Positions 1 through 48,585 of a DNA stretch of 64,000 bases are shown piece by piece. Position 1 is the stretch's first letter. Each line of letters opens with the position of its first letter. The translations under genes were made by a program, and so were the position numbers. Under the pieces are notes generated by a model. It did no database searches and was not told where the DNA came from. It worked only from the letters and a program-made list of their open reading frames with translations. The stretch covers positions 252,907-316,906 of the forward strand of contig VBAR01000003.1 of NCBI GenBank assembly GCA_005882315.1, written 5' to 3'. Origin of the DNA: Bacteroidota bacterium. GTDB lineage: Bacteria > Bacteroidota > Bacteroidia > Chitinophagales > Chitinophagaceae.

Positions 1-813
1 ATCGATACATGTCGGTGAACCACCTCGCTGTATATGTCCGAGAATACAAACCCTGATCTCAGCTTTTGGCAATTCTTCTTTTAAAATTTTTTCTACTTCT
101 ACAGCTCCGCCAAATTCATCACCCTCTGCTACAACGATCAGGTTCACTAATTTTTTCCTTCTTTCCTTTTCTTTTAATGATAAGATGATATCATTGATAT
201 CCGTTTTTCTTTCAGGTATCAGGATATTTTCTGCGCCGGTAGCAATACCGCTATGCAAGGCAATATAACCCGCATCACGACCCATCACTTCAATAATAAA
301 GATACGATCATGTGCATCCATTGTATCCCTGATCTTATCAATAGCTTCAACAGCAGTGTTTACGGCTGTATCAAAACCAATAGTAAAATCTGTACCGGCG
401 ATATCTTTATCAATAGTACCTGCTAATCCGATCACAGGTATATCAAATTCTGAACTGAATTGTACTGCACCACGGAAACTTCCGTCACCACCGATAATGA
501 CCAAACCATCGATGCCTCTTCTTTTCAGATTATCATATGCTTTTTTTCGGCCAGCGGGTTCAAAAAATTCTTTGCAGCGGGCAGTTTTTAAAATAGTGCC
601 TCCACGCTGAATAATATTGGCTACTGATCTAGTATCCATCTGGAAAATATCATCATCGATCATTCCCTGGTAACCTCTAACGATGCCATAAATTTCAAGA
701 CCATGATACAAACCTGTTCTAACCACAGCCCTGATGGCCGCATTCATACCAGGTGAATCACCGCCGGAAGTCATTACGCCGATCTTTGTAACTTTTCTTG
801 TAGTTGTCGCCAT
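1..813 (-). CDS. pfkA: ATP-dependent 6-phosphofructokinase, first 271 codons (3' part runs off the window start)
   Basis: Hand translation of the minus strand from the ATG (complement of cat at 811-813) gives MATTTRKVTKIGVMTSGGDSPGMNAAIRAVV... PfkA hallmarks GGDSPGMNA, IIGGDGS, TIDKD and MGRDAG are present. It is absent from the ORF track because it is open at the window edge. Confidence 0.9.
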   Translation of the reverse strand, partial: MATTTRKVTKIGVMTSGGDSPGMNAAIRAVVRTGLYHGLEIYGIVRGYQGMIDDDIFQMDTRSVANIIQRGGTILKTARCKEFFEPAGRKKAYDNLKRRGIDGLVIIGGDGSFRGAVQFSSEFDIPVIGLAGTIDKDIAGTDFTIGFDTAVNTAVEAIDKIRDTMDAHDRIFIIEVMGRDAGYIALHSGIATGAENILIPERKTDINDIILSLKEKERRKKLVNLIVVAEGDEFGGAVEVEKILKEELPKAEIRVCILGHIQRGGSPTCID

Positions 814-24010: not shown

Positions 24011-25144
24011 TTATGTAATTAATTTTTTGGCTGCCTTCTTTAATGCTTCAATATCCTTCTCTGTACAATCAACATAACTATAGATTCCCATTATCAATGG
24101 CAGAGCAGTATCTTTCATAAAATACACTGTCTGAATATTGGATTTTTTTGTGTTATACTCCAATAGCTTGGCACATTGAAATTCATCCCAGCAAACCGGT
24201 GATTGAGAATAGTCAGGGCTGAGAATAGCTACAAATTTTTCTGATTGCCCGATTGCATCCGAAATCATTTTCAACCATTGCCCGCCAACCGGTATACTAT
24301 CCTTATCATAAAAAATATTCAGCAGCGGGTTTTGTTGCTTCATCGTTTCAACAAACTCATCCACTTCCTGTTTTTGCTTGTGTGCATAGCTGATAAAAAA
24401 ATCATAGCCAGTTCGGGGTTCTATGAATGTTCTTCCCCCTCCACCATTCCCAACACCGCTGCCACCAGCATCTTCACTTGCTCCGTCACCGCCTCCATCA
24501 TAACCAGCTTCTTCAGGTGCAGGCATGATGAGATCTTTATCATTATAATCGATGAGGTCATTTTTATTTTCTTTAAATGACTCAAATATCTGTAACGATC
24601 TTTCGGCATCATGATCGTTGTATACAACAATGTCAATTGATTCAACAGGCAGGCCCTGTTCTAACCAGAAAAAAGCAGATTCTAGGATAGAAGGAAACAT
24701 TTCCTCAAACGGCGCACTTTGATTACCTGTTGCCAGCAAAGGCATTGCAACACGATTGATCTCTTCATCAAAGGCAAAATTGTTAATACAACGAAACAAG
24801 CTGCTCACTACTTCCCAGGGATTATGTGATTGGGTTTTGGGCTCAAAACAAAGGATTCGTTTGAAATTAAAATAAGCCTGCTGCTCTGCTGTTAGTGGTT
24901 GTGATAGCCAGCACCCTAGTGAGCTACGGAGGTCTTGTGCTTTGTTTTTTGCAAGTAAACCAACATCAAGTCCTTTACTATAAAAGTTACCTACCAATGT
25001 ATTAAGATATGGCTCGTAGTTGTTTGGGAATGCGGAAACAACTACTATATCTGCCTTATCGGTTGGAGGAATTTTAGTCAGATCACCATGTATCAGTGAT
25101 AGTTTTGAATTACTAAATTCTATTTGTGAAAGAAATTTATACAT
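24011..25144 (-). CDS. macro-like domain :: Gly-rich linker :: TIR domain fusion protein (candidate NAD-targeting immune effector)
   Basis: C-terminal TIR (aa ~246-377): YDFFISYAH and FVAILSPDYSQSPVCWDEF (catalytic-Glu block, E321). N-terminal aa ~10-185 shows macro-fold motif order: LIHGDLTK..ADIVVVSAF ... RVAMPLLATGNQSAPFEE ... IDIVVYND. The linker is EEAGYDGGGDGASEDAGGSGVGNGGGG. The TIR call is confident. The macro call is motif-based only. Confidence 0.8.
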   Translation of the reverse strand: MYKFLSQIEFSNSKLSLIHGDLTKIPPTDKADIVVVSAFPNNYEPYLNTLVGNFYSKGLDVGLLAKNKAQDLRSSLGCWLSQPLTAEQQAYFNFKRILCFEPKTQSHNPWEVVSSLFRCINNFAFDEEINRVAMPLLATGNQSAPFEEMFPSILESAFFWLEQGLPVESIDIVVYNDHDAERSLQIFESFKENKNDLIDYNDKDLIMPAPEEAGYDGGGDGASEDAGGSGVGNGGGGRTFIEPRTGYDFFISYAHKQKQEVDEFVETMKQQNPLLNIFYDKDSIPVGGQWLKMISDAIGQSEKFVAILSPDYSQSPVCWDEFQCAKLLEYNTKKSNIQTVYFMKDTALPLIMGIYSYVDCTEKDIEALKKAAKKLIT

Positions 25145-25356
25145 GTCAGGCTGTTTTAATTATTTGGTATGACAACTGAATGTGGTGATGAGCTATTTCA
25201 TATGGAAATTAGCAAAAAATATATCATTCAAAGAGTGGTTTAGATAAATACTCCTTTAGTAGTATCACCAGTTTCAGTTCGCAGAAGTTCGTGACTTTTA
25301 TTTTCGGACCATAATCGAGATGAAGTGTTAAGAAAGTTTGATGTAATAGCGGAGTG

Positions 25357-25430
25357 TCAGGCTGAGCTTGTCGAAGCCCTGATGAGTTTTTGTACAAATG
25401 CTGTGCAACCCTTCGACAAACTCAGGGTGA
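25357..25430. repeat. imperfect palindromic intergenic element (REP-like)
   Basis: Arm 1 is tcaggctgagcttgtcgaag (25357-25376). Arm 2 is cttcgacaaactcagggtga (25411-25430), whose reverse complement matches arm 1 at 17/20 positions. The spacer is 34 nt. The arm sequence resembles a motif I recall recurring in Bacteroidota intergenic regions. Confidence 0.7.
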
Positions 25431-25465
25431 AAGAACTATGTTTTATTCAATGTCTCATTGTTGAC

Positions 25466-25534
25466 GAATAGAATTCCCGAACGTACAAGAGTGCGACGCA
25501 ACGAAAGCCTAATAGTAGCAATACAGCTAAGAAC
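25466..25534 (+). repeat. dispersed 69-nt repeat, copy A (upstream of smc)
   Basis: An ungapped hand alignment with the reverse complement of 51066-51134 gives 55/69 identities. This includes a 20/20 core, GTACAAGAGTGCGACGCAAC. Confidence 0.8.
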
Positions 25535-25654
25535 CCAAAATATCCAATATCCCAATCCCCAATTCTACCCGCACATCTGTGTATAACTCTAACAATTCCA
25601 AAACTCTAATTCCGCTGTTTTCCTCCTATATTCGCCGCATTAAACCCATTAAAA

Positions 25655-41429: not shown

Positions 41430-43322
41430 ATGGCAAAAGAAAAAGAAGTAAATCTCTTTGAGTACAACGAAGCGTCGATCAAAACCCTCGATTGGCAGGA
41501 GCATATCCGCCTGCGACCCGGAATGTATATTGGTAAACTGGGCGATGGTTCTTCCCCCGATGATGGCATTTATGTGCTTGTAAAAGAAGTAGTGGATAAC
41601 TGTATTGATGAGTATGCAATGGGACATGGCAAGACAGTTGAAATAACTGTTGATAAGACTTCAGTTACCGTTCGTGACTATGGCCGTGGCATCCCACTGG
41701 GTAAAGTGGTAGATGTTGTAAGCAAAGTAAATACCGGTGCCAAGTTTGACAGTAAAGTATTTCAGAAATCAGTCGGCCTGAATGGTGTGGGTACAAAAGC
41801 TGTGAATGCATTGAGCAATTATTTTAAAGTAACAGCATTCAGAGAAGGAAAAGAAAAAACAGCAGAGTTTGCAAAAGGAATATTAAAGAAAGAACATAAG
41901 GAAGCAAAGACTTCGGAGAGTAATGGCACAATGGTTTCATTTACTCCGGATGAAACCATGTTTAAGAATTATAAGTTTCACCCTGAGTTCCTGGAAAGCC
42001 AGATATGGAATTACTGTTACCTGAATGCAGGATTAAAAATTGTTTTTAACGGAAAGAGTTTTGTGAGTAAAAATGGCTTGCTCGATTTGCTGCAGCGCAA
42101 AACCAATGAAGATGAGATCCGTTATCCCATCATACATCTAAGCGGTGATGATATTGAAGTAGCTATTACGCATAACAACGATTATGGTGAAGACATTTAC
42201 AGTTTTGTAAATGGCCAGCATACCACACAGGGCGGTACACACCAGCAGGCTTTTCGTGAAGCATATGTAAAAACCATCCGTGATTTTTATAAAAAGGATT
42301 ATGATGCGGCTGATATAAGAACCGGTATTGTGGCTGCAGTTTCTGTTCGTGTGGTAGAGCCTGTATTTGAAAGCCAGACAAAAACAAAACTCGGTTCTGT
42401 GAATGTGGACATAGAAGGGCCGACAATGAAAAACTTTATTGGTGATTTTCTTTCTAAGGAATTGGAAATCTATTTACATAAAAATCCGTCTACTGCAGAA
42501 TCGCTGAAGAAGCGTATTGAACAAAGTGAAAAAGAAAGAAAAGAACTTTCAGGTATTCGTAAACTGGCGAATGAAAGAGCTAAGAAGGCAAACCTGCATA
42601 ACCGCAAGTTGCGTGACTGTCGTTATCATTTTAATGATGAACCACCTAATAAAGGAAAAGAAGAATTTGTAGCAAAGCTTCATGAAACGACTGTCTTCAT
42701 TACTGAAGGTGATAGTGCCAGTGGTTCAATAACAAAATCACGGAATGTAGAAACTCAGGCTGTATTCAGCTTGAGGGGCAAGCCACTCAACTGTTATGGA
42801 CTTACCAAAAAAGTGGTTTATGAAAATGAAGAGTTTAATCTCTTGCAACATGCGTTGAATATTGAAGATGGATTGGAAGGCTTACGTTATAACAATATCG
42901 TAATAGCAACCGATGCCGATGTGGATGGTATGCATATTCGTTTGCTGCTAATGACTTTCTTTCTGCAATTCTTTCCTGACCTGGTGAAGCATGAAAAAGT
43001 ATATGTGCTGGAAACACCATTGTTCCGCGTACGCAACAAGCAGGAAACAATTTATTGCTACAGCGAAGCAGAAAAACAGAATGCCGTAAAGAAACTTGGA
43101 AGCAAGCCGGAGATAACACGTTTCAAAGGTTTAGGAGAAATAAGCCCTGATGAGTTTGCATTGTTTATTGGAGCTGATATGCGTAAACGATTAATGCATC
43201 TTGAGCAAGGCGAACATATACAGGCTTTGCTTGAATACTATATGGGCAAGAACACAATGGAACGGCAGGAGTTTATTATTGAAAACCTTAAAGTCGAATT
43301 AGACATTGTAGAAGAAGTTTAA
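41430..43322 (+). CDS. parE: DNA topoisomerase IV subunit B (type IIA topoisomerase ATPase subunit)
   Basis: GHKL ATPase ([15 protein letters not shown]), TOPRIM ([18 protein letters not shown]), SLRGKPLN. At 630 aa it lacks the GyrB-specific length. Its partner A subunit lies downstream in the same orientation. Confidence 0.85.
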
Positions 43323-43378
43323 TTCTTATTTACCCCCTGAATAAGTTAGATATCATACGAAAATCAAAATCATTATTC

Positions 43379-44062
43379 ATGAAGTGGAAACTTCATGGAC
43401 TTGTAGAGCCATTTGCAGGAGTGATGAAGAATGCGGCTTATATGAGCAATATAAGTAAATGGAGAAGCAACACGAAAGTGAATGGGTATAATGATTGGTA
43501 CCTGGGCAAATGGGATTATAATAAACGATACGATCTTTATGAATCGTTGATACAATCAGAGAAGCTGGATACAGAAGCAATAGATTATCTCGAATTTGGA
43601 GTTAGTAGTGGACATTCTTTTAAATGGTGGCTGGAACATAATAAAAACCCAGGTTCATCATTTCACGGCTTTGACACATTTGAAGGATTGCCGGAGAACT
43701 GGGGACATTTTGATAAAGGGGCAATGGCGGTTGCATTGGAGTCACTTAATATCACTGATTCAAGGGCTCATTTTTATAAAGGATTATTCCAGGATACATT
43801 GATCCCTTTTTTGAATGAGTATAAAAATGAAAGACGCAAACTGATCCATATGGATGCTGATCTTTTCAGCTCTACGATCTTTTCTTTATCACAGCTGTAC
43901 CGGTTTTTAAACGAGGGAGACATAATTTTGTTCGATGAATTTGCAGTGCCGAAACATGAATTTGCGGCGTTTAAAATATTCACAGAAAGTTTTTATGTGA
44001 ACTATGAAGTGATTGGTGCAGCTAATAATTATCTGTTTGTAGCAATTAAAATAAAGAAGTAA
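43379..44062 (+). CDS. TylF/macrocin-O-methyltransferase-like class I SAM-dependent methyltransferase
   Basis: Motifs LEFGVSSGHS, FDTFEGLPE and HMDADLFSST in the order typical of the TylF family. Confidence 0.65.
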   Translation: MKWKLHGLVEPFAGVMKNAAYMSNISKWRSNTKVNGYNDWYLGKWDYNKRYDLYESLIQSEKLDTEAIDYLEFGVSSGHSFKWWLEHNKNPGSSFHGFDTFEGLPENWGHFDKGAMAVALESLNITDSRAHFYKGLFQDTLIPFLNEYKNERRKLIHMDADLFSSTIFSLSQLYRFLNEGDIILFDEFAVPKHEFAAFKIFTESFYVNYEVIGAANNYLFVAIKIKK

Positions 44063-44064
44063 GA

Positions 44065-44847
44065 ATGTTTGAATTTCATGCAGACAGGAAAAGATATTTT
44101 GATATACAGGTGTTAAACGCTGAGAAATATGTCATTCCTTTTATTGAGCAAAGTTTTAAGATAACTCCCGGTATGCGGATATTAGAAATTGGCTGCGGCG
44201 AGGCGGGGGTTTTGAAAGGATTTATCAACAAAGGCTGTTTTGGAATGGGGGTGGAGCTGGATGCGCCACGAATTGAACATGCAAAAGAATACCTTGCAGA
44301 TGATTTTGTAGCTGGCAGAATTCAGTTCATTTCAAAAGATATTTATAAAGTAGATGCGGAAAAAGAGTTGGGCGGGTTTTATGATGTAGTTGTTTTGAAA
44401 GATGTGATCGAACATATACATGATCAGCCTAAGCTGATCGGCTGGATGAAGAATTTTTTAAAACCGGGAGGTGTAATATTTTTTGGGTTTCCGCCCTGGT
44501 ATATGCCTTATGGTGGCCACCAGCAAATGTGCAGATCATGGATGCGCAAAATTCCGTGGATACATTTGTTGCCACGAAGCACTTATGGTTGGTTGCTGAG
44601 AAAGAATAAAGAAAGTGCTGATGATCTGCTGGAAGTAAAAGATACCGGCATCAGTATAGAGCGGTTTGAAAGGATCTGTAATGAGCAGGGATATAAAATT
44701 GAAAACAAAACTCATTACTTACTCAACCCGATCTATGAATGGAAATTTGGCTATAAAGCGAGAAAGCAATTCGGTTTGATAAAGTCAATTCCATTTGTAA
44801 GAAATTTTTTTACGACTTGTGTTTATTATTTAATTAAAGTGAAATAA
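44065..44847 (+). CDS. class I SAM-dependent methyltransferase
   Basis: Motif I RILEIGCGEAG, acidic loop GVELD, and post-I/II motifs (VVVLKDVIEHI, LKPGGVIFF). Confidence 0.75.
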   Translation: MFEFHADRKRYFDIQVLNAEKYVIPFIEQSFKITPGMRILEIGCGEAGVLKGFINKGCFGMGVELDAPRIEHAKEYLADDFVAGRIQFISKDIYKVDAEKELGGFYDVVVLKDVIEHIHDQPKLIGWMKNFLKPGGVIFFGFPPWYMPYGGHQQMCRSWMRKIPWIHLLPRSTYGWLLRKNKESADDLLEVKDTGISIERFERICNEQGYKIENKTHYLLNPIYEWKFGYKARKQFGLIKSIPFVRNFFTTCVYYLIKVK

Positions 44848-44852
44848 AGGTT

Positions 44853-45704
44853 ATGATACATGTAGTTTTTCAAGAATCAGATGTTGATGTATTGCAGCAG
44901 GCAATAGAACTCGACGAAACATTGAAAGGTGAAATTTTTCAGATCAAAGATGACCTGGGAGTTGGTCCGCTTAACGGGCTGGATACTGACGAAGGCTGGA
45001 AAGCAAGAGAGGATTGGTGGAGAGAGTTGTTAAAAAATTCACCTTATGGTGAAAAATTGGTTGGAAGTTTTGATGATCGGGAAACAATGAAGCAACTGAT
45101 GACAGCATTAGATGCAGATGAAACACAGGAAGCATGGATATGGATGGGGCAGAACCAACATGATGTAACTGGTTACTTCTGGCTGATGCCACAACTAAGA
45201 AAATACCAGGGGAGGCTGATGATCGTATACCTGAATAATCTTCCTTTCATCAATGATAAAGGACAGATATTTTACCCATTGAAAGTGCATGATGTATTGC
45301 CAAAGGAAATTGTGAAAGCAAAAAAATTGTCAAGACCTATTACATTGAGTGAATTTGAAGTGGATCCGGATGAGTGGAAAAAATTGATAGATGAAAACGC
45401 TGCAGTAAGAATACTTGAAGGTGGGAAAAAAATAGCCGGCAAAGAAGTTAGTTTTTATGATGGAGAGATTTTAAAGAACATTACTCCTGAGTGGCAGAAA
45501 GCAACAAGGGTATTGACAAATACATTACATCGGATGAAGATAAAAACAGGCGATGTGTATATCATGTGGCGTATGAAGCAACTGATTGCCGATGGAAAGA
45601 TTGAAGCAACAGGTGAAATTGAAAAAGGATGGAAAGATTTTGATGTGAGAAAGGCAGGTGCTGTTTCTGCAGAAGCAGTTTCATCGGAAGTTGAAACCAA
45701 TTAG
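44853..45704 (+). CDS. DUF1835/DUF3658-like protein
   Basis: The N-terminus MIHVVFQESDVDVLQQA...DDLGVGPL resembles the DUF1835 start. This assignment is from memory and unverified. Confidence 0.55.
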   Translation: MIHVVFQESDVDVLQQAIELDETLKGEIFQIKDDLGVGPLNGLDTDEGWKAREDWWRELLKNSPYGEKLVGSFDDRETMKQLMTALDADETQEAWIWMGQNQHDVTGYFWLMPQLRKYQGRLMIVYLNNLPFINDKGQIFYPLKVHDVLPKEIVKAKKLSRPITLSEFEVDPDEWKKLIDENAAVRILEGGKKIAGKEVSFYDGEILKNITPEWQKATRVLTNTLHRMKIKTGDVYIMWRMKQLIADGKIEATGEIEKGWKDFDVRKAGAVSAEAVSSEVETN

Positions 45705-45705
45705 T

Positions 45706-46059
45706 ATGAAAAATATTCTCAAACTGGAAGAAGCAGCCATGTTTGCTCTCAGCATTTATGGATTGTATTCCTTACAGGCAGAATGGTGGTGGTTTGCATT
45801 GCTGGTTCTCGGGCCAGATATAAGTATGTTAGGTTACCTGGCAGGAAATAATGTAGGCGCTGCCTGTTATAATTTATTTCATCATAAAGCAGTGGCCGTT
45901 GTAATTTTTATGGCTGGATTGCTTATGCCCAACCTGTTATTGCAATTGGTGGGAATTGTCTTGTTCGGTCATTCTTCAATGGACAGGATGATGGGTTATG
46001 GCCTTAAAACATCTGAAGGATTTAAATACACACATTTAGGAATAATAGGAAAACAATAA
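45706..46059 (+). CDS. small membrane protein (DUF4260-like)
   Basis: The ATG at 45706 (MKNILKLEEAAMF...) is 1 nt after the upstream stop. About 117 aa with 3-4 TM helices. The track start at 45658 overlaps the previous gene and was rejected. Confidence 0.6.
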   Translation: MKNILKLEEAAMFALSIYGLYSLQAEWWWFALLVLGPDISMLGYLAGNNVGAACYNLFHHKAVAVVIFMAGLLMPNLLLQLVGIVLFGHSSMDRMMGYGLKTSEGFKYTHLGIIGKQ

Positions 46060-46062
46060 AAA

Positions 46063-48585
46063 ATGAGTGCAGCAAAAAATAAACTGAAAGAGATTGAAAA
46101 CAATGATACCGGATTGCACGGCCAGTATAAAACATGGTTTTTGGATTATGCATCCTATGTAATACTAGAAAGAGCTGTTCCGGCGATTGAGGATGGATTA
46201 AAACCTGTACAGCGCCGCATCCTTCATGCGATGAAGGAAATGGATGACGGACGTTTTAATAAAGTAGCAAATGTGATCGGGCAAACTATGCAATATCATC
46301 CGCATGGTGATGCAAGCATTGGTGATGCGCTGGTGAATATCGGGCAGAAAGACCTGATGATAGAAACACAGGGTAACTGGGGTGATGTAAGAACAGGTGA
46401 TGAAGCCGCAGCTCCGCGTTATATCGAAGGACGATTGAGCAAGTTTGCACTTGAAGTTGCTTTTAATGCTAAAATAACCGAGTGGCAATTAAGCTATGAT
46501 GGAAGAAAGAATGAACCGGTGACATTGCCGATGAAGTTTCCTTTGCTGCTTGCACAAGGCGCAGATGGAATTGCGGTTGGTCTTTCAACAAAAATTCTTC
46601 CTCATAATTTCTGTGAATTGATCGAAGCATCTATAAAACATTTACGTGGTAAGCGTTTTGAATTGTATCCCGATTTTCAAACCGGCGGGCAGATAGATGT
46701 GGATGAATATAACCAGGGTAAACGCGGTGGTAAAGTAAAAGTGAGGGCACATATTGAAGAGTTGGATAAGAAAACGCTGGCTATCCGTAGTGTTCCGTAT
46801 GGAGTTACTACCACACAAGTGATGGATAGTATTGTAAAGGCAAACGACCAGGGAAAAATTAAAATCAAAAAAGTAACAGATAATACGGCTGCTGATGTAG
46901 AGATACAGGTTGACCTGGCACCGGGAATTTCGCCAGACATTACAATTGATGCACTGTATAAATTCACCGACTGTGAAATTTCTATTTCTCCAAATGCTTG
47001 TGTGATCGTTGCACAGAAACCGCAGTTCCTTACCGTGACTGAGTTGTTACGAATTTCAACTGACCATACTAAAGATTTGCTGCAGCAGGAATTAAAGATC
47101 AAGTTGAGTGAGTTGCAGGAAAAATGGCATTATACTTCACTAGAAAAGATCTTCTTTGAAGAAAAGATTTATAAAGAGCTGGAAAAAAAGCATGCTACAT
47201 GGGATAAAGTGTTGGAAGCAATTGACGATGCATTTAAACCATTCAAGAAACAATTAAAAAGAGAAATTACAAGAGAAGATATAATTAAGCTTACTGAAAA
47301 ACCAGTACGTCGTATCTATAAACTTGATATCGATGAACTGAATGACCATATCAAAGGATTAGAAGCCGATATTAAAGCGGTAAAACATGATCTGGCCAAC
47401 CTGGTAGATTTTGCCGTAAACTATTTCGAAAATCTGTTGAAGAAGTATGGTAAAGACCGGGAACGCAAAACAGAGATCAAACAATTTGAAGTGATCCAAA
47501 CAAAGCATGTTGCTATTATCAATACTAAAATTTATGTGAACCGCGAAGATGGGTTCATCGGTACATCGCTCAAAAAAGATGAGTTCGTTTTGGATTGCTC
47601 GGATATGGATGATCTGATTGTCTTTACCAAGCAGGGAATTATGAAAGTGGTAAAAGTGGCTGATAAGTCTTATATCGGTAAAGACATCATGCATGCTGCC
47701 GTTTTTCAAAAAAATGATGAACGGACCACTTACAATATGATATATATGGATGGTAAAACCGGTAAGAGTTTTGCAAAACGTTTTAATGTAACCGGTGTTA
47801 CCCGTGATAAGGAATACTTCCTGGCGAATGATCATGAAAGAAGCAAAGTGCATTACCTCAGTATAAATCCAAATGCAGAAGCAGAAATTATAAAAATTGT
47901 ACTCACTCCGGGTTGTAAGGCACATAAAAAAGAATTCGAATACAATTTCAGTGAGTTGGAGATCACGGGCCGTAGCAGTAAAGGGATCACTGTAACTAAA
48001 TACCCGATCAAATCAGATGGAGTGAAACTGAAAGAGGCTGGTGTTTCTACCATTGCCGGTAAAAAACTATGGTATGATGATCAGTTTGGAAGATTGAGTA
48101 CCGAAGAGAAAGGAAGGTTTATAGGTACATATGAACCTGATGATAAAATACTCGTGGCAATGAATGATGGCAATTATATGATCACTGACCAGGAACTCTC
48201 ACAGAAATTCGATGCGGAGAAAGTTTTGCTGATCGAAAAATTCAATCCGGAGAAAACAATTACTGCGGTATATGCTGATATGGATAAGAAGCAATTCATG
48301 GCTAAGCGTTTTAAAATTGAAACGACGACACTCCGGAATAAATTCATGTTCATCAAAGAAGGCGAAGGGAATTATGTTGCCGCAGTTAGTACAGATGAAG
48401 AGCCAGTATTATCCGTTCAGCAGGGCAGGGGAGCACAAGTGAGAAAAGGTAAATTGAAGATCGCAAAAATTGCTGAGATCAGTGGATGGAGAACTGTTGG
48501 TACAAGATTATTGGATTACAGCAAGAGTGTGGAAATGGAATGGGTGAAACAGAAGGGAGGACAACAGGCCGAATTATTCAACTAA
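46063..48585 (+). CDS. parC: DNA topoisomerase IV subunit A
   Basis: LKPVQRRILHAM, and the active-site Tyr block AAPRYIEGRL. 840 aa. I could not find a GyrA-box (QRRGGKG-like) in the C-terminal domain. Confidence 0.85.
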   Translation: MSAAKNKLKEIENNDTGLHGQYKTWFLDYASYVILERAVPAIEDGLKPVQRRILHAMKEMDDGRFNKVANVIGQTMQYHPHGDASIGDALVNIGQKDLMIETQGNWGDVRTGDEAAAPRYIEGRLSKFALEVAFNAKITEWQLSYDGRKNEPVTLPMKFPLLLAQGADGIAVGLSTKILPHNFCELIEASIKHLRGKRFELYPDFQTGGQIDVDEYNQGKRGGKVKVRAHIEELDKKTLAIRSVPYGVTTTQVMDSIVKANDQGKIKIKKVTDNTAADVEIQVDLAPGISPDITIDALYKFTDCEISISPNACVIVAQKPQFLTVTELLRISTDHTKDLLQQELKIKLSELQEKWHYTSLEKIFFEEKIYKELEKKHATWDKVLEAIDDAFKPFKKQLKREITREDIIKLTEKPVRRIYKLDIDELNDHIKGLEADIKAVKHDLANLVDFAVNYFENLLKKYGKDRERKTEIKQFEVIQTKHVAIINTKIYVNREDGFIGTSLKKDEFVLDCSDMDDLIVFTKQGIMKVVKVADKSYIGKDIMHAAVFQKNDERTTYNMIYMDGKTGKSFAKRFNVTGVTRDKEYFLANDHERSKVHYLSINPNAEAEIIKIVLTPGCKAHKKEFEYNFSELEITGRSSKGITVTKYPIKSDGVKLKEAGVSTIAGKKLWYDDQFGRLSTEEKGRFIGTYEPDDKILVAMNDGNYMITDQELSQKFDAEKVLLIEKFNPEKTITAVYADMDKKQFMAKRFKIETTTLRNKFMFIKEGEGNYVAAVSTDEEPVLSVQQGRGAQVRKGKLKIAKIAEISGWRTVGTRLLDYSKSVEMEWVKQKGGQQAELFN

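Follow-up and report, generated by a model that had tools for sequence, protein, structure and literature searches.

A gene on the minus strand of a 64,000-nucleotide stretch of Chitinophagaceae DNA (contig VBAR01000003.1; the whole stretch is called the window below) encodes a 377-residue protein, at positions 24011 to 25144, in which an N-terminal macro-like domain is joined to a C-terminal TIR domain. Judging from its sequence, we consider this macro-like::TIR gene a credible single-gene NAD-targeting module, part of a large modular family whose other members often have recurring partner genes. An initial annotation had presented it as an intact minus-strand open reading frame (ORF) coding for an orphan fusion, the two halves of which are joined by an acidic, glycine-rich linker. 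The frame was indeed confirmed by the ORF list and by its translation, in which every motif quoted at that time is present, and the start codon is consistent with the N termini of the aligned homologues. The linker was found as well: its predicted local distance difference test (pLDDT) score is below 50 in the AlphaFold2 (AF2) model, and its length and sequence differ between homologues. The orphan status did not survive, since we found more than 500 full-length homologues and many architectures. A residue-for-residue identical protein is encoded on about 10 metagenome contigs, each time in the same gene context, and an assembly artifact can therefore be dismissed: this is a real gene of a real organism. 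CHU_C- and Y_Y_Y-type genes among its neighbors would fit a Bacteroidota host.

The C-terminal half is a TIR domain with the predicted active site of an NADase

The Pfam TIR_2 profile matched residues 249 to 369 of the window protein (E 1.8e-16; 61.2 bits with a cutoff of 28; profile positions 1 to 119 of 122), and the Pfam TIR profile matched it too (E 2.9e-7; 30.9 bits, cutoff 21.3), confirming that the C-terminal approximately 130 residues form a TIR domain. By sequence, the closest solved relative of this domain is Cat1 (PDB 9mud), with an E value of 2e-8 for the single sequence and of 5e-13 for the family profile. In the HMMER alignments, S252, D280, S315, and E321 of the window protein correspond to S7, D33, S68, and E74 of Cat1. 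According to the cryo-electron microscopy structure, the NADase site of Cat1 comprises S7, H8, N9, N10, D33, S68, and E74, together with K121 and Y122 from a second TIR; the substitutions N10A, D33A, S68A, E74A, K121A, and Y122A each abolish toxicity in vivo, while S7 was not mutated (PMC12162218).

E321 lies in the alpha-C helix in an S-x-x-C-x-x-E register, and the Ser/Asp active-site residues are present. This glutamate had been proposed as the catalytic residue, and its equivalence to Cat1 E74 agrees with that proposal, as does its conservation. Indeed, S252, D280, S315, and E321 are all invariant in 36 full-length homologues, and among 117 TIR-bearing representatives of at most 50% identity they are conserved in 99%, 93%, 98%, and 97% of the sequences, respectively. 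The TIR half thus has all the single-chain active-site residues known from a TIR with demonstrated NAD cleavage and is predicted to be catalytically competent. A different register, derived from AbTIR by one HMMER alignment and placing the catalytic Glu two residues away from E321, was overruled by the Cat1 alignment and the Cat1 mutagenesis. In TIR NADases such as Cat1, SARM1, and AbTir, two TIRs are needed to complete one active site.

The N-terminal half is modeled as a macro fold

The Pfam Macro profile (PF01661) stayed under its cutoff of 22 on the window protein (E 0.17, 12.3 bits) and matched only 4 of 16 family members, with a best E value of 0.01. The NCBIfam YmdB-type model reached E values of 0.01 to 0.03 on the N-terminal half, far under its cutoff, and none of the PADLOC models searched, including ThsA, matched this half. 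The HMMER comparison suggested in the initial annotation was therefore significant for TIR_2 and subthreshold for Macro, and for this reason the fold assignment rests on a profile search, on AF2 modeling, and on Foldseek.

A domain profile built from 16 family sequences matched AF1521 among the PDB sequences (E 1.2e-3), aligning the "GD" and "IAxPxxxxG" motifs with AF1521 in the same order and placing "qGDl" on the "QGDI" of AF1521. Using hhalign, residues 130 to 190 were paired with residues 133 to 191 of AF1521; the global hhalign alignment is unreliable between the GD motif and residue 130, and residue equivalences were taken only from the GD motif and from residues 130 to 190.

The AF2 model, based on a 36-sequence alignment, has a mean pLDDT of 81.8, with blocks of 77 to 97 over residues 1 to 190 and a well-formed TIR domain. 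When it was compared with the PDB by Foldseek, the top 45 matches were all macrodomain-containing entries (E 1e-8 to 1e-6; TM scores of 0.64 to 0.79, normalized to the single-domain targets), among them AF1521, macroH2A1.1/1.2/2, PARP9/14/15, an Oceanobacillus macrodomain, and macroH2A-carrier fusion crystals. The best of these (AF1521, macroH2A1.1, and PARP9/14) had E values of approximately 1e-8 and TM scores of 0.72 to 0.79. Macrodomains were also matched in a viral structure library, which is consistent with the PDB result. Residues 1 to 198 are thus confidently modeled as a macro fold, a three-layer alpha/beta/alpha arrangement. The macro-type fold that had been read from motifs is in this way established by three independent lines, namely, by the AF1521 profile match, by the AF2 model, and by Foldseek matches to ADP-ribose-binding macrodomains.

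The macro-like domain has its own conserved residues

The stretch G20-D21-L22-T23 corresponds to G19-D20-I21-T22 of AF1521, so that the adenine-contacting Asp after strand 2 is kept. Among 149 representatives of at most 50% identity, G20 is conserved in 99% and D21 in 95% (N in five of them). Conservation is complete for S37, W79, and E101 (100%) and nearly so for Y43, C78, and S81 (97 to 98%), and at least 95% was reached by each of G20, D21, Y43, G58, D71, C78, S81, and G140. The clade-specific residues are also retained in short forms and in forms fused to an ADP-ribosyltransferase (ART) domain. In the AF2 model, S37 and E101 each terminate a predicted strand on its C-terminal side, while the short strand 78 to 81 contains both W79 and S81. 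These are roughly the positions at which alpha/beta folds bind ligands, and the four residues may line a single shared pocket.

The catalytic and glycine-rich elements of known macrodomains are a different matter. We found no conserved Asn and no Gly run in the family alignment at the positions of the MacroD Asn at the end of strand 3 ("NAAN") and of the Gly-rich loop 1 ("GGG"). Instead, "VVSA[FY]P..Y.P" is found there, in a local alignment that is uncertain by about one residue. From the phosphate-binding loop 2 ("G-[IV]-[YF]-G"), the first Gly alone is kept (G140, 97%), G143-I-Y-G146 of AF1521 corresponding to G140-N-Q-S143. Neither the TARG1 Lys/Asp pair nor the PARG QEE motif was found in the family alignment. 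The initial annotation had recognized the motif order of a macro-type fold in this half, and one correction is needed: the domain is untypical, being devoid of the MacroD Asn and of the Gly-rich loop, having a Ser/Trp/Glu set of its own, and being found in fusions to ART domains as well.

A similar combination is known from the His-ADP-ribose (ADPR)-sensing ThsA macrodomain of type II Thoeris, in which the adenine contact is retained, D100 being the Asp equivalent to D21, and the hydrolase residues are lost (10.1101/2024.01.03.573942). At the sequence level, the macro-like domain appears to follow the same pattern.

Macro-like::TIR is a modular cassette in a large family

To count the family, we searched 1.84 billion representatives exhaustively with a mixed-profile hidden Markov model (HMM), the matches being counted as clusters at 50% identity; a word-index homology search with the Ralstonia N-terminal domain (see below) returned only 5 proteins. 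The macro-like domain was found in 1,230 clusters at an E value of at most 1e-3, in 883 at most 1e-10, and in 357 at most 1e-30. Architectures were assigned to the best 150 of the 1,230 clusters with local HMMs of the two halves. The macro-like::TIR pair stood alone in 84 of them, was preceded by an extra N-terminal region of 95 to 1,377 residues in 23, and was accompanied by an extra C-terminal region or by additional TIR copies in about 15. In the others, the macro-like domain was followed by a non-TIR region (15), was located at the C terminus (7), or occurred alone (4).

Of these best 150, 61 proteins carry extra regions, and the Pfam families counted in them were TIR_2 in 38, ADPrib_exo_Tox in 9, and ART in 8. 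Less frequent were Pkinase (4), VipA plus VipB (3), Hsp70 (3), DUF6508 (3), CHAT, FHA, and NUDIX (2 each), and pYEATS, AAA_16, aegerolysin, and Peptidase_C25 (1 each). On this sequence evidence, the macro-like domain forms a clade of its own, which occurs across bacteria almost only beside NAD-consuming catalytic domains, mostly TIR but also ART. Macro-like::TIR is a modular cassette that either makes up the whole protein or follows a front end of the kinase-FHA-VipA/B, Hsp70, CHAT, or AAA_16 type. Such a position behind sensor or scaffold domains is the place where effector cassettes sit.

One of the giant forms, P0241 (1,717 residues), reads Pkinase-FHA-VipA-VipB-macro-like-TIR, with the cassette at the C terminus; its combination of a sheath-like module (VipA/VipB, type VI secretion system sheath) and a TIR effector is unusual. 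Other giant forms with a C-terminal macro-like::TIR are P0211, P0265, P0206, and P0224, and Hsp70, CHAT, pYEATS, or AAA_16 domains were seen in other large representatives of the census.

The ART-fused relatives came to light in a tblastn search of plasmids with the window protein, in which the N-terminal half alone matched, on 133 Ralstonia solanacearum megaplasmids (28% identity, E 1e-15). No family motif is missing from the Ralstonia form, but its fusion partner is an ADP-ribosyltransferase toxin domain (Pfam ADPrib_exo_Tox); the macro-like::ART combination also occurs in Acidobacteriota. The gene lies in a four-gene cluster (L087:4965-8937 on the R. solanacearum megaplasmid CP047139.1; L089/L090:8001-11820; L091:5573-9476), present in the 133 Ralstonia megaplasmid records and recurring in Thermoanaerobaculia and in another metagenome. 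The order is a gene for approximately 300 residues, macro-like::ART (approximately 400 residues), DUF6508 (approximately 125 residues), and a protein of approximately 450 to 480 residues, which in Ralstonia is a Metallophos/ASMase_C phosphoesterase. The first gene is uncharacterized in Ralstonia and encodes a helical N terminus followed by a macro-like domain in L089 to L091, the cluster thus being preceded by a short "helical::macro-like" protein in Thermoanaerobaculia and the other metagenome. Neighboring genes encode a ShET2/EspL2 type III effector in Ralstonia and RHS-repeat toxins in Thermoanaerobaculia.

A patatin/TPR-S operon accompanies one-third of the loci

Scanning 185,579 species genomes yielded 77 macro-like::TIR loci, a pattern-based lower bound, 70 of which are nonredundant. 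They belong mostly to Chitinophagaceae and Prolixibacteraceae and also to Accumulibacter, Bryobacterales, Vicinamibacterales, Methylomirabilis, and Limisphaerales, which makes a patchy distribution over six or more phyla-level groups.

Clustering of all flanking ORFs revealed that 25 of the 70 loci form a tight same-strand operon with a CapV-like patatin and a TIR-like::TPR-S gene, so the absence of a partner gene noted initially cannot be taken as a family trait. The patatin matched the CBASS phospholipase effector model of PADLOC (E 8e-55) and, under the cutoff, the NCBIfam CBASS_lipase model (E 1e-39). The TPR-S partner (466 residues) consists of a TIR/DrHyd-like N terminus and Pfam MAP3K_TRAF_bd/TPR-S ("TPR sensor"). 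Where no small TIR-like gene intervenes, the macro-like::TIR gene starts 12 to 43 bp downstream of the TPR-S gene. Optional members of the operon are a 226-residue TIR-like protein, a TIR_2-transmembrane (TM)-CarboxypepD_reg protein, and a beta-barrel-like protein of approximately 510 residues. Overall, the operon looks like a multieffector TIR signaling system outside the named Thoeris types. It was seen in L008 to L021, L024, L026, L028, L044, L047, L057, L059, L071, and L073, within approximately 5 kb to either side of the match, often with a second, downstream copy of TPR-S and often with a glycosyltransferase gene ahead.

In a neighbor-joining tree, the operon loci are dispersed over several Bacteroidota clades, whereas neither the non-Bacteroidota clade nor the deep branch of the window protein contains any. 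This suggests that the linkage to patatin and TPR-S is old and was repeatedly lost. The other 45 loci stand alone, with no such partners within 5 to 10 kb, and lie in 33 different genomic contexts, synteny being limited to close relatives; in Prolixibacteraceae, for example, one locus is common to seven species. The number and diversity of these stand-alone loci argue that the macro-like::TIR protein is able to work alone.

Two NAD-related neighbors were observed. Of the 148 ORFs that flank the stand-alone loci, 4 encode members of the isochorismatase family, to which nicotinamidase PncA belongs. Next to an enzyme predicted to liberate nicotinamide this would be curious, but it may reflect a few related genomes. 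The gene of P0065, a near relative of the window protein (L081:6822-9850, L082, and L083), lies directly downstream of pntA/pntB on the same strand, with a 150-bp gap; pntA/pntB encode NAD(P) transhydrogenase, and the meaning of this neighbor is uncertain.

Proposed mechanism and alternative readings

We tentatively read the macro-like::TIR protein as a self-contained ligand-gated NADase effector, with sensor and effector in one chain, and would place this combined reading just short of probable. The macro-like domain would bind an adenine-nucleotide or ADP-ribose-type ligand in a crevice lined by S37, W79, and E101, and would, via the flexible linker, control the pairing of one TIR with another. 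Once released and assembled, the TIRs would cleave NAD+, leading to NAD+ depletion, growth arrest, and release of ADP-ribose-type products. In the approximately one-third of genomes in which patatin and TPR-S share the operon, these products may in addition switch on both effectors, while in the window genome, which has no such partners nearby, both sensing and killing would fall to this one protein. Phage infection or another stress could be the trigger, and the role may be an immune, antiphage one.

Several observations weigh against this reading. The loops with which canonical macrodomains bind the phosphates and the distal ribose are not kept, and the adenine-stacking aromatic residue, present in the window protein as Y175 (AF1521 Y176), is Tyr or Phe in only approximately 47% of the clade (50 Tyr and 20 Phe among the 149 representatives); for both reasons, ligand binding by the macro-like domain is hypothetical. 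The total invariance of the Ser/Trp/Glu set would suit an enzyme as well as a sensor. Furthermore, the minimal operon has no canonical TIR other than that of macro-like::TIR, and if the operon followed the scheme of Thoeris, this protein would produce the signal and not be the terminal effector. As for the genomic context, no PADLOC or other defense family recurs among the 148 ORFs flanking the 45 stand-alone loci, no copy was found on phage or viral contigs (IMG/VR and a phage collection) and no full-length copy on plasmids, and the GC content of the window gene (0.39) equals that of its flanks. The survey of neighborhoods proposed in the initial annotation hence gave a divided answer, namely, recurrent partners at 25 of 70 loci, the only ones that lie beside conflict-type genes, and no defense enrichment around the stand-alone copies. 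Likewise, from the two features of genomic context that it had named as speaking against an immune module, a fixed genomic position was not seen (33 contexts), while the lack of defense enrichment was (45 stand-alone loci).

A possible but unlikely alternative is that the protein is a ThsB-like signal producer. Its TIR would make an ADP-ribose-derived second messenger and the patatin and TPR-S proteins would do the killing, the macro-like domain acting as an infection sensor or as a module that shapes or holds the product; in the window genome, the effectors would be encoded elsewhere or have been lost. The operon speaks for this, being present at 25 of 70 loci in several Bacteroidota clades, with the gene 12 to 43 bp behind TIR-like::TPR-S and as the only canonical TIR of the minimal version, with a patatin that matches the nucleotide-activated phospholipases of CBASS, and with a TPR-S protein that has the domain composition of ThsI, the cyclic ADP-ribose (cADPR)-responsive effector of type VIII Thoeris. 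The likeness to ThsI was, however, judged by domain composition alone, and 45 of 70 loci, including the window, lack the partners within 5 to 10 kb, the non-Bacteroidota clade never having them. Moreover, the type VIII ThsB TIRs in Table S1 of the respective preprint are of a different TIR type, the family motif was not found in the part of that table that was searched, and the fusions to large sensor or scaffold N termini look like effector usage.

The invariant residues raise another option, which we regard as improbable. The macro-like domain could be a hydrolase of a new clade, with S37, W79, and E101 as candidate catalytic residues, that works in cis as a "safety catch": it would destroy or trim the product of the attached TIR or ART, or reverse self-ADP-ribosylation, and thus be a fused antitoxin or self-limiter. 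Conservation of S37, W79, and E101 in all representatives, and of C78, S81, and Y43 in nearly all, is stronger than is usual for a pure binding site, and this domain also occurs in fusions to ART toxin domains, the operon of which encodes DUF6508 and a phosphoesterase-like protein. DarT-DarG and SirTM-macro pairs work in this way. In addition, a regulatory role for the macrodomains of TIR systems, with cADPR as their target, was predicted by Aravind and colleagues (PMC9503650). On the other hand, the alignment shows none of the known macro catalytic signatures (MacroD Asn plus Gly-rich loop, TARG1 Lys/Asp, PARG QEE), and a fused antitoxin must be switched off for any effect to occur, a switching for which this option offers no explanation. 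A related and similarly improbable idea is that the domain is a new catalytic macro clade (Ser37/Trp79/Glu101) serving as the dedicated partner of TIR and ART toxin domains, which, by acting on what the attached enzyme produces, would turn macro-like::TIR into a single-chain "writer-editor." If true, this would imply a new ADP-ribose-derived messenger, read by CapV-like patatins and TPR-S proteins, and self-regulation in the stand-alone copies.

Least convincing, and in our view very unlikely, is a nonimmune role as a housekeeping or stress regulator of NAD/ADP-ribose metabolism or as a scaffold TIR, vertically retained in some Bacteroidota: the housekeeping neighbors in the window (SMC, a two-component system, a fatty-acid desaturase, and glycolysis genes), the GC content, the locus shared by seven Prolixibacteraceae species, and the lack of defense enrichment at stand-alone copies, of phage or viral copies, and of full-length plasmid copies would fit it, but only 77 loci (a lower bound) were found in 185,579 species genomes, dispersed among Bacteroidota, Accumulibacter, Acidobacteriota, Methylomirabilis, and Verrucomicrobiota, the contexts of the stand-alone copies number 33, one-third of the loci have a CBASS-type patatin, TPR-S, and extra TIR genes, and the cassette, its catalytic set intact, is fused to domains typical of conflict systems.

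Relation to known systems

The self-contained effector that we tentatively favor has its nearest counterpart in Cat1, the CARF-TIR protein of type III CRISPR-Cas. Cat1 is the closest solved TIR by sequence, has the same S/D/S/E site, unites sensor and TIR NADase in one chain, and depends on TIR-TIR assembly for its activity. It differs in that its sensor is a CARF domain binding cyclic tetra-adenylate (cA4), its TIR is N-terminal, and it needs Cas10 as signal generator, no generator being linked to the gene in the window.

Type II Thoeris (ThsB TIR plus ThsA/ThsC Macro-TM) likewise pairs a TIR with a macrodomain that keeps the adenine Asp and lacks the MacroD residue, and this macrodomain senses a TIR-made ADPR conjugate. 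There, however, two proteins are involved, with the macrodomain on a membrane effector and the TIR as signal maker, whereas the window protein is a fusion whose macro-like domain is of another clade, with its own S/W/E signature and without a PADLOC ThsA match. In type VIII Thoeris, ThsB acts with ThsI, a protein composed of a CMP-hydrolase-like domain and TPR that is activated by cADPR (bioRxiv 10.64898/2025.12.03.692087). At 24 loci, macro-like::TIR adjoins a TIR/DrHyd-like plus TPR-S/MAP3K_TRAF_bd protein that is ThsI-like by composition. The differences are that the ThsB sequences listed in the preprint are of a different TIR type, that the macro-like::TIR operons add a CapV-like patatin, and that the window copy has no such neighbor.

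TIR-SAVED, TIR-STING (CBASS), and SARM1 share the principle of a nucleotide or metabolite sensor that controls an oligomerization-dependent TIR NADase; the ARM domain of SARM1, for instance, senses NAD+ and NMN (PMC11204291). These proteins have other sensor folds with known ligands and signal sources, while the macro-like sensor and its ligand are hypothetical. In DarT-DarG and SirTM-macro pairs, a macrodomain is coupled to an NAD-consuming enzyme, as is the macro-like clade in its fusions to ART domains. Those macrodomains are, however, active hydrolases on separate polypeptides that serve as antitoxins or erasers, and their catalytic residues are not in the macro-like domain.

The PADLOC ThsB1 model matched the window protein only weakly and partially, in the TIR core (E 2e-3 to 3e-3 with the full protein and approximately 4e-4 with the TIR region). 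The full-text literature searched, which did not extend to subscription-only papers, had no name for the macro-like::TIR fusion; an earlier mention, for example in a comparative-genomics survey, is possible. With only generic TIR matches in PADLOC and no name in the literature searched, the earlier statement that no named defense system fits the gene still stands. By sequence, macro-like::TIR appears to lie outside the named systems, combining the known sensor-plus-TIR logic with an unrecognized, widespread partner domain of the macro type. Fusions of TIR NADases to sensors (SAVED, STING, and CARF) were known already, as were macrodomains that recognize the product of a TIR (type II Thoeris); new relative to the literature searched is a macro-type domain fused directly to a TIR, of which the Pfam, NCBIfam, and PADLOC models currently annotate the TIR half only. 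The ligand or catalysis of the macro-like domain, once known, would extend the control elements of NAD-based immunity and toxin biology by another one, and a novel ADP-ribose-derived ligand might emerge. For TIR-to-effector signaling, the operon with patatin and a ThsI-like TPR-S protein is a three-gene system ready for study, and the single gene of the window is its minimal version for biochemistry.

The window locus

The features of the gene are listed in Table 1. It is separated from the divergently transcribed smc by a spacer, and its other neighbors encode a small membrane protein, CsbD, a fatty-acid desaturase, an ankyrin protein, and a two-component pair; glycolytic genes, topoisomerase subunits, SmpB, and ACC are found farther out. 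No effector gene lies within 10 kb on either side, as a Thoeris operon would have it, no homologue of any recurrent partner family was detected by tblastn in the 64 kb, and none of the neighbors clusters with the neighbors of any other family locus. At this locus, the gene is indeed without a partner, as initially annotated.

When the 56 other ORFs of the window were analyzed with PADLOC, only isolated single-protein matches were obtained (mad3, E 4e-58; PDC-M72A, E 2e-45; LmuB/JetC/AriA/PtuA), which presumably represent SMC and topoisomerase/GHKL ATPases and not a defense system. The GyrB/ParE-like and topoisomerase IV-like genes at 41430-48582, or SMC, are the probable source of the mad3 and PDC-M72A matches. 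No other recognizable defense system was found by PADLOC in the window, and together with the neighbors this agrees with the description of a housekeeping region that has a sole immune-type gene.

Table 1. Coordinates of the macro-like::TIR gene, its parts, and the adjoining spacer in the window
Feature	Residues	Positions	Strand	Basis
Complete macro-like::TIR gene, 377 aa plus stop codon (24011-24013)	1-377	24011..25144	-	ORF list, translation
Macro-like domain	1-198	24551..25144	-	AF2, Foldseek, family profile, hhalign
Predicted strands of the macro-like domain	3-9, 14-19, 31-37, 68-72, 78-81, 94-100, 131-135, 169-174			
G20-D21 "GD" motif, corresponding to G19-D20 of AF1521 (contacts adenine N6 in macrodomains)	20-21	25082..25087	-	HMMER alignment
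Span with clade-specific invariant residues (includes Y43)		24842..25036	-	Conservation, 149 representatives
S37 codon	37	25034-25036	-	
C78-W79-x-S81 codons	78-81	24902-24913	-	
E101 codon	101	24842-24844	-	
Linker, acidic and Gly-rich, predicted disordered	199-242	24419..24550	-	pLDDT, homologue variation
TIR domain	243-377	24014..24418	-	Pfam TIR_2
Span of TIR active-site residues		24182..24391	-	Alignment to Cat1
S252 codon	252	24389-24391	-	
D280 codon	280	24305-24307	-	
S315 codon	315	24200-24202	-	
Catalytic E321 codon (predicted)	321	24182-24184	-	
Divergent spacer between the macro-like::TIR gene and smc, 510 bp, presumed promoter region		25145..25654	.	ORF map

Scans of the 510-bp spacer for sigma-70-type promoters and terminators gave counts at the level of shuffled sequence, with models that do not cover Bacteroidota promoters. 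The spacer holds an imperfect palindrome of 37 plus 37 nucleotides (25357-25430; 70% complementary, no spacer between the arms). Its core, CTTCGACAA[AG]CTCAG, is present in each arm but at no other place in the window, in which chance would give 0.15 matches, and the palindrome could be an operator, a terminator-like element, or a repetitive extragenic palindromic (REP)-type repeat. Additionally, just upstream of the start codon, we found an inverted repeat of 16 nucleotides (25174-25189 and 25264-25279; 88% complementary, 74 nucleotides apart), which could be a regulatory site or a structure of the 5' untranslated region.

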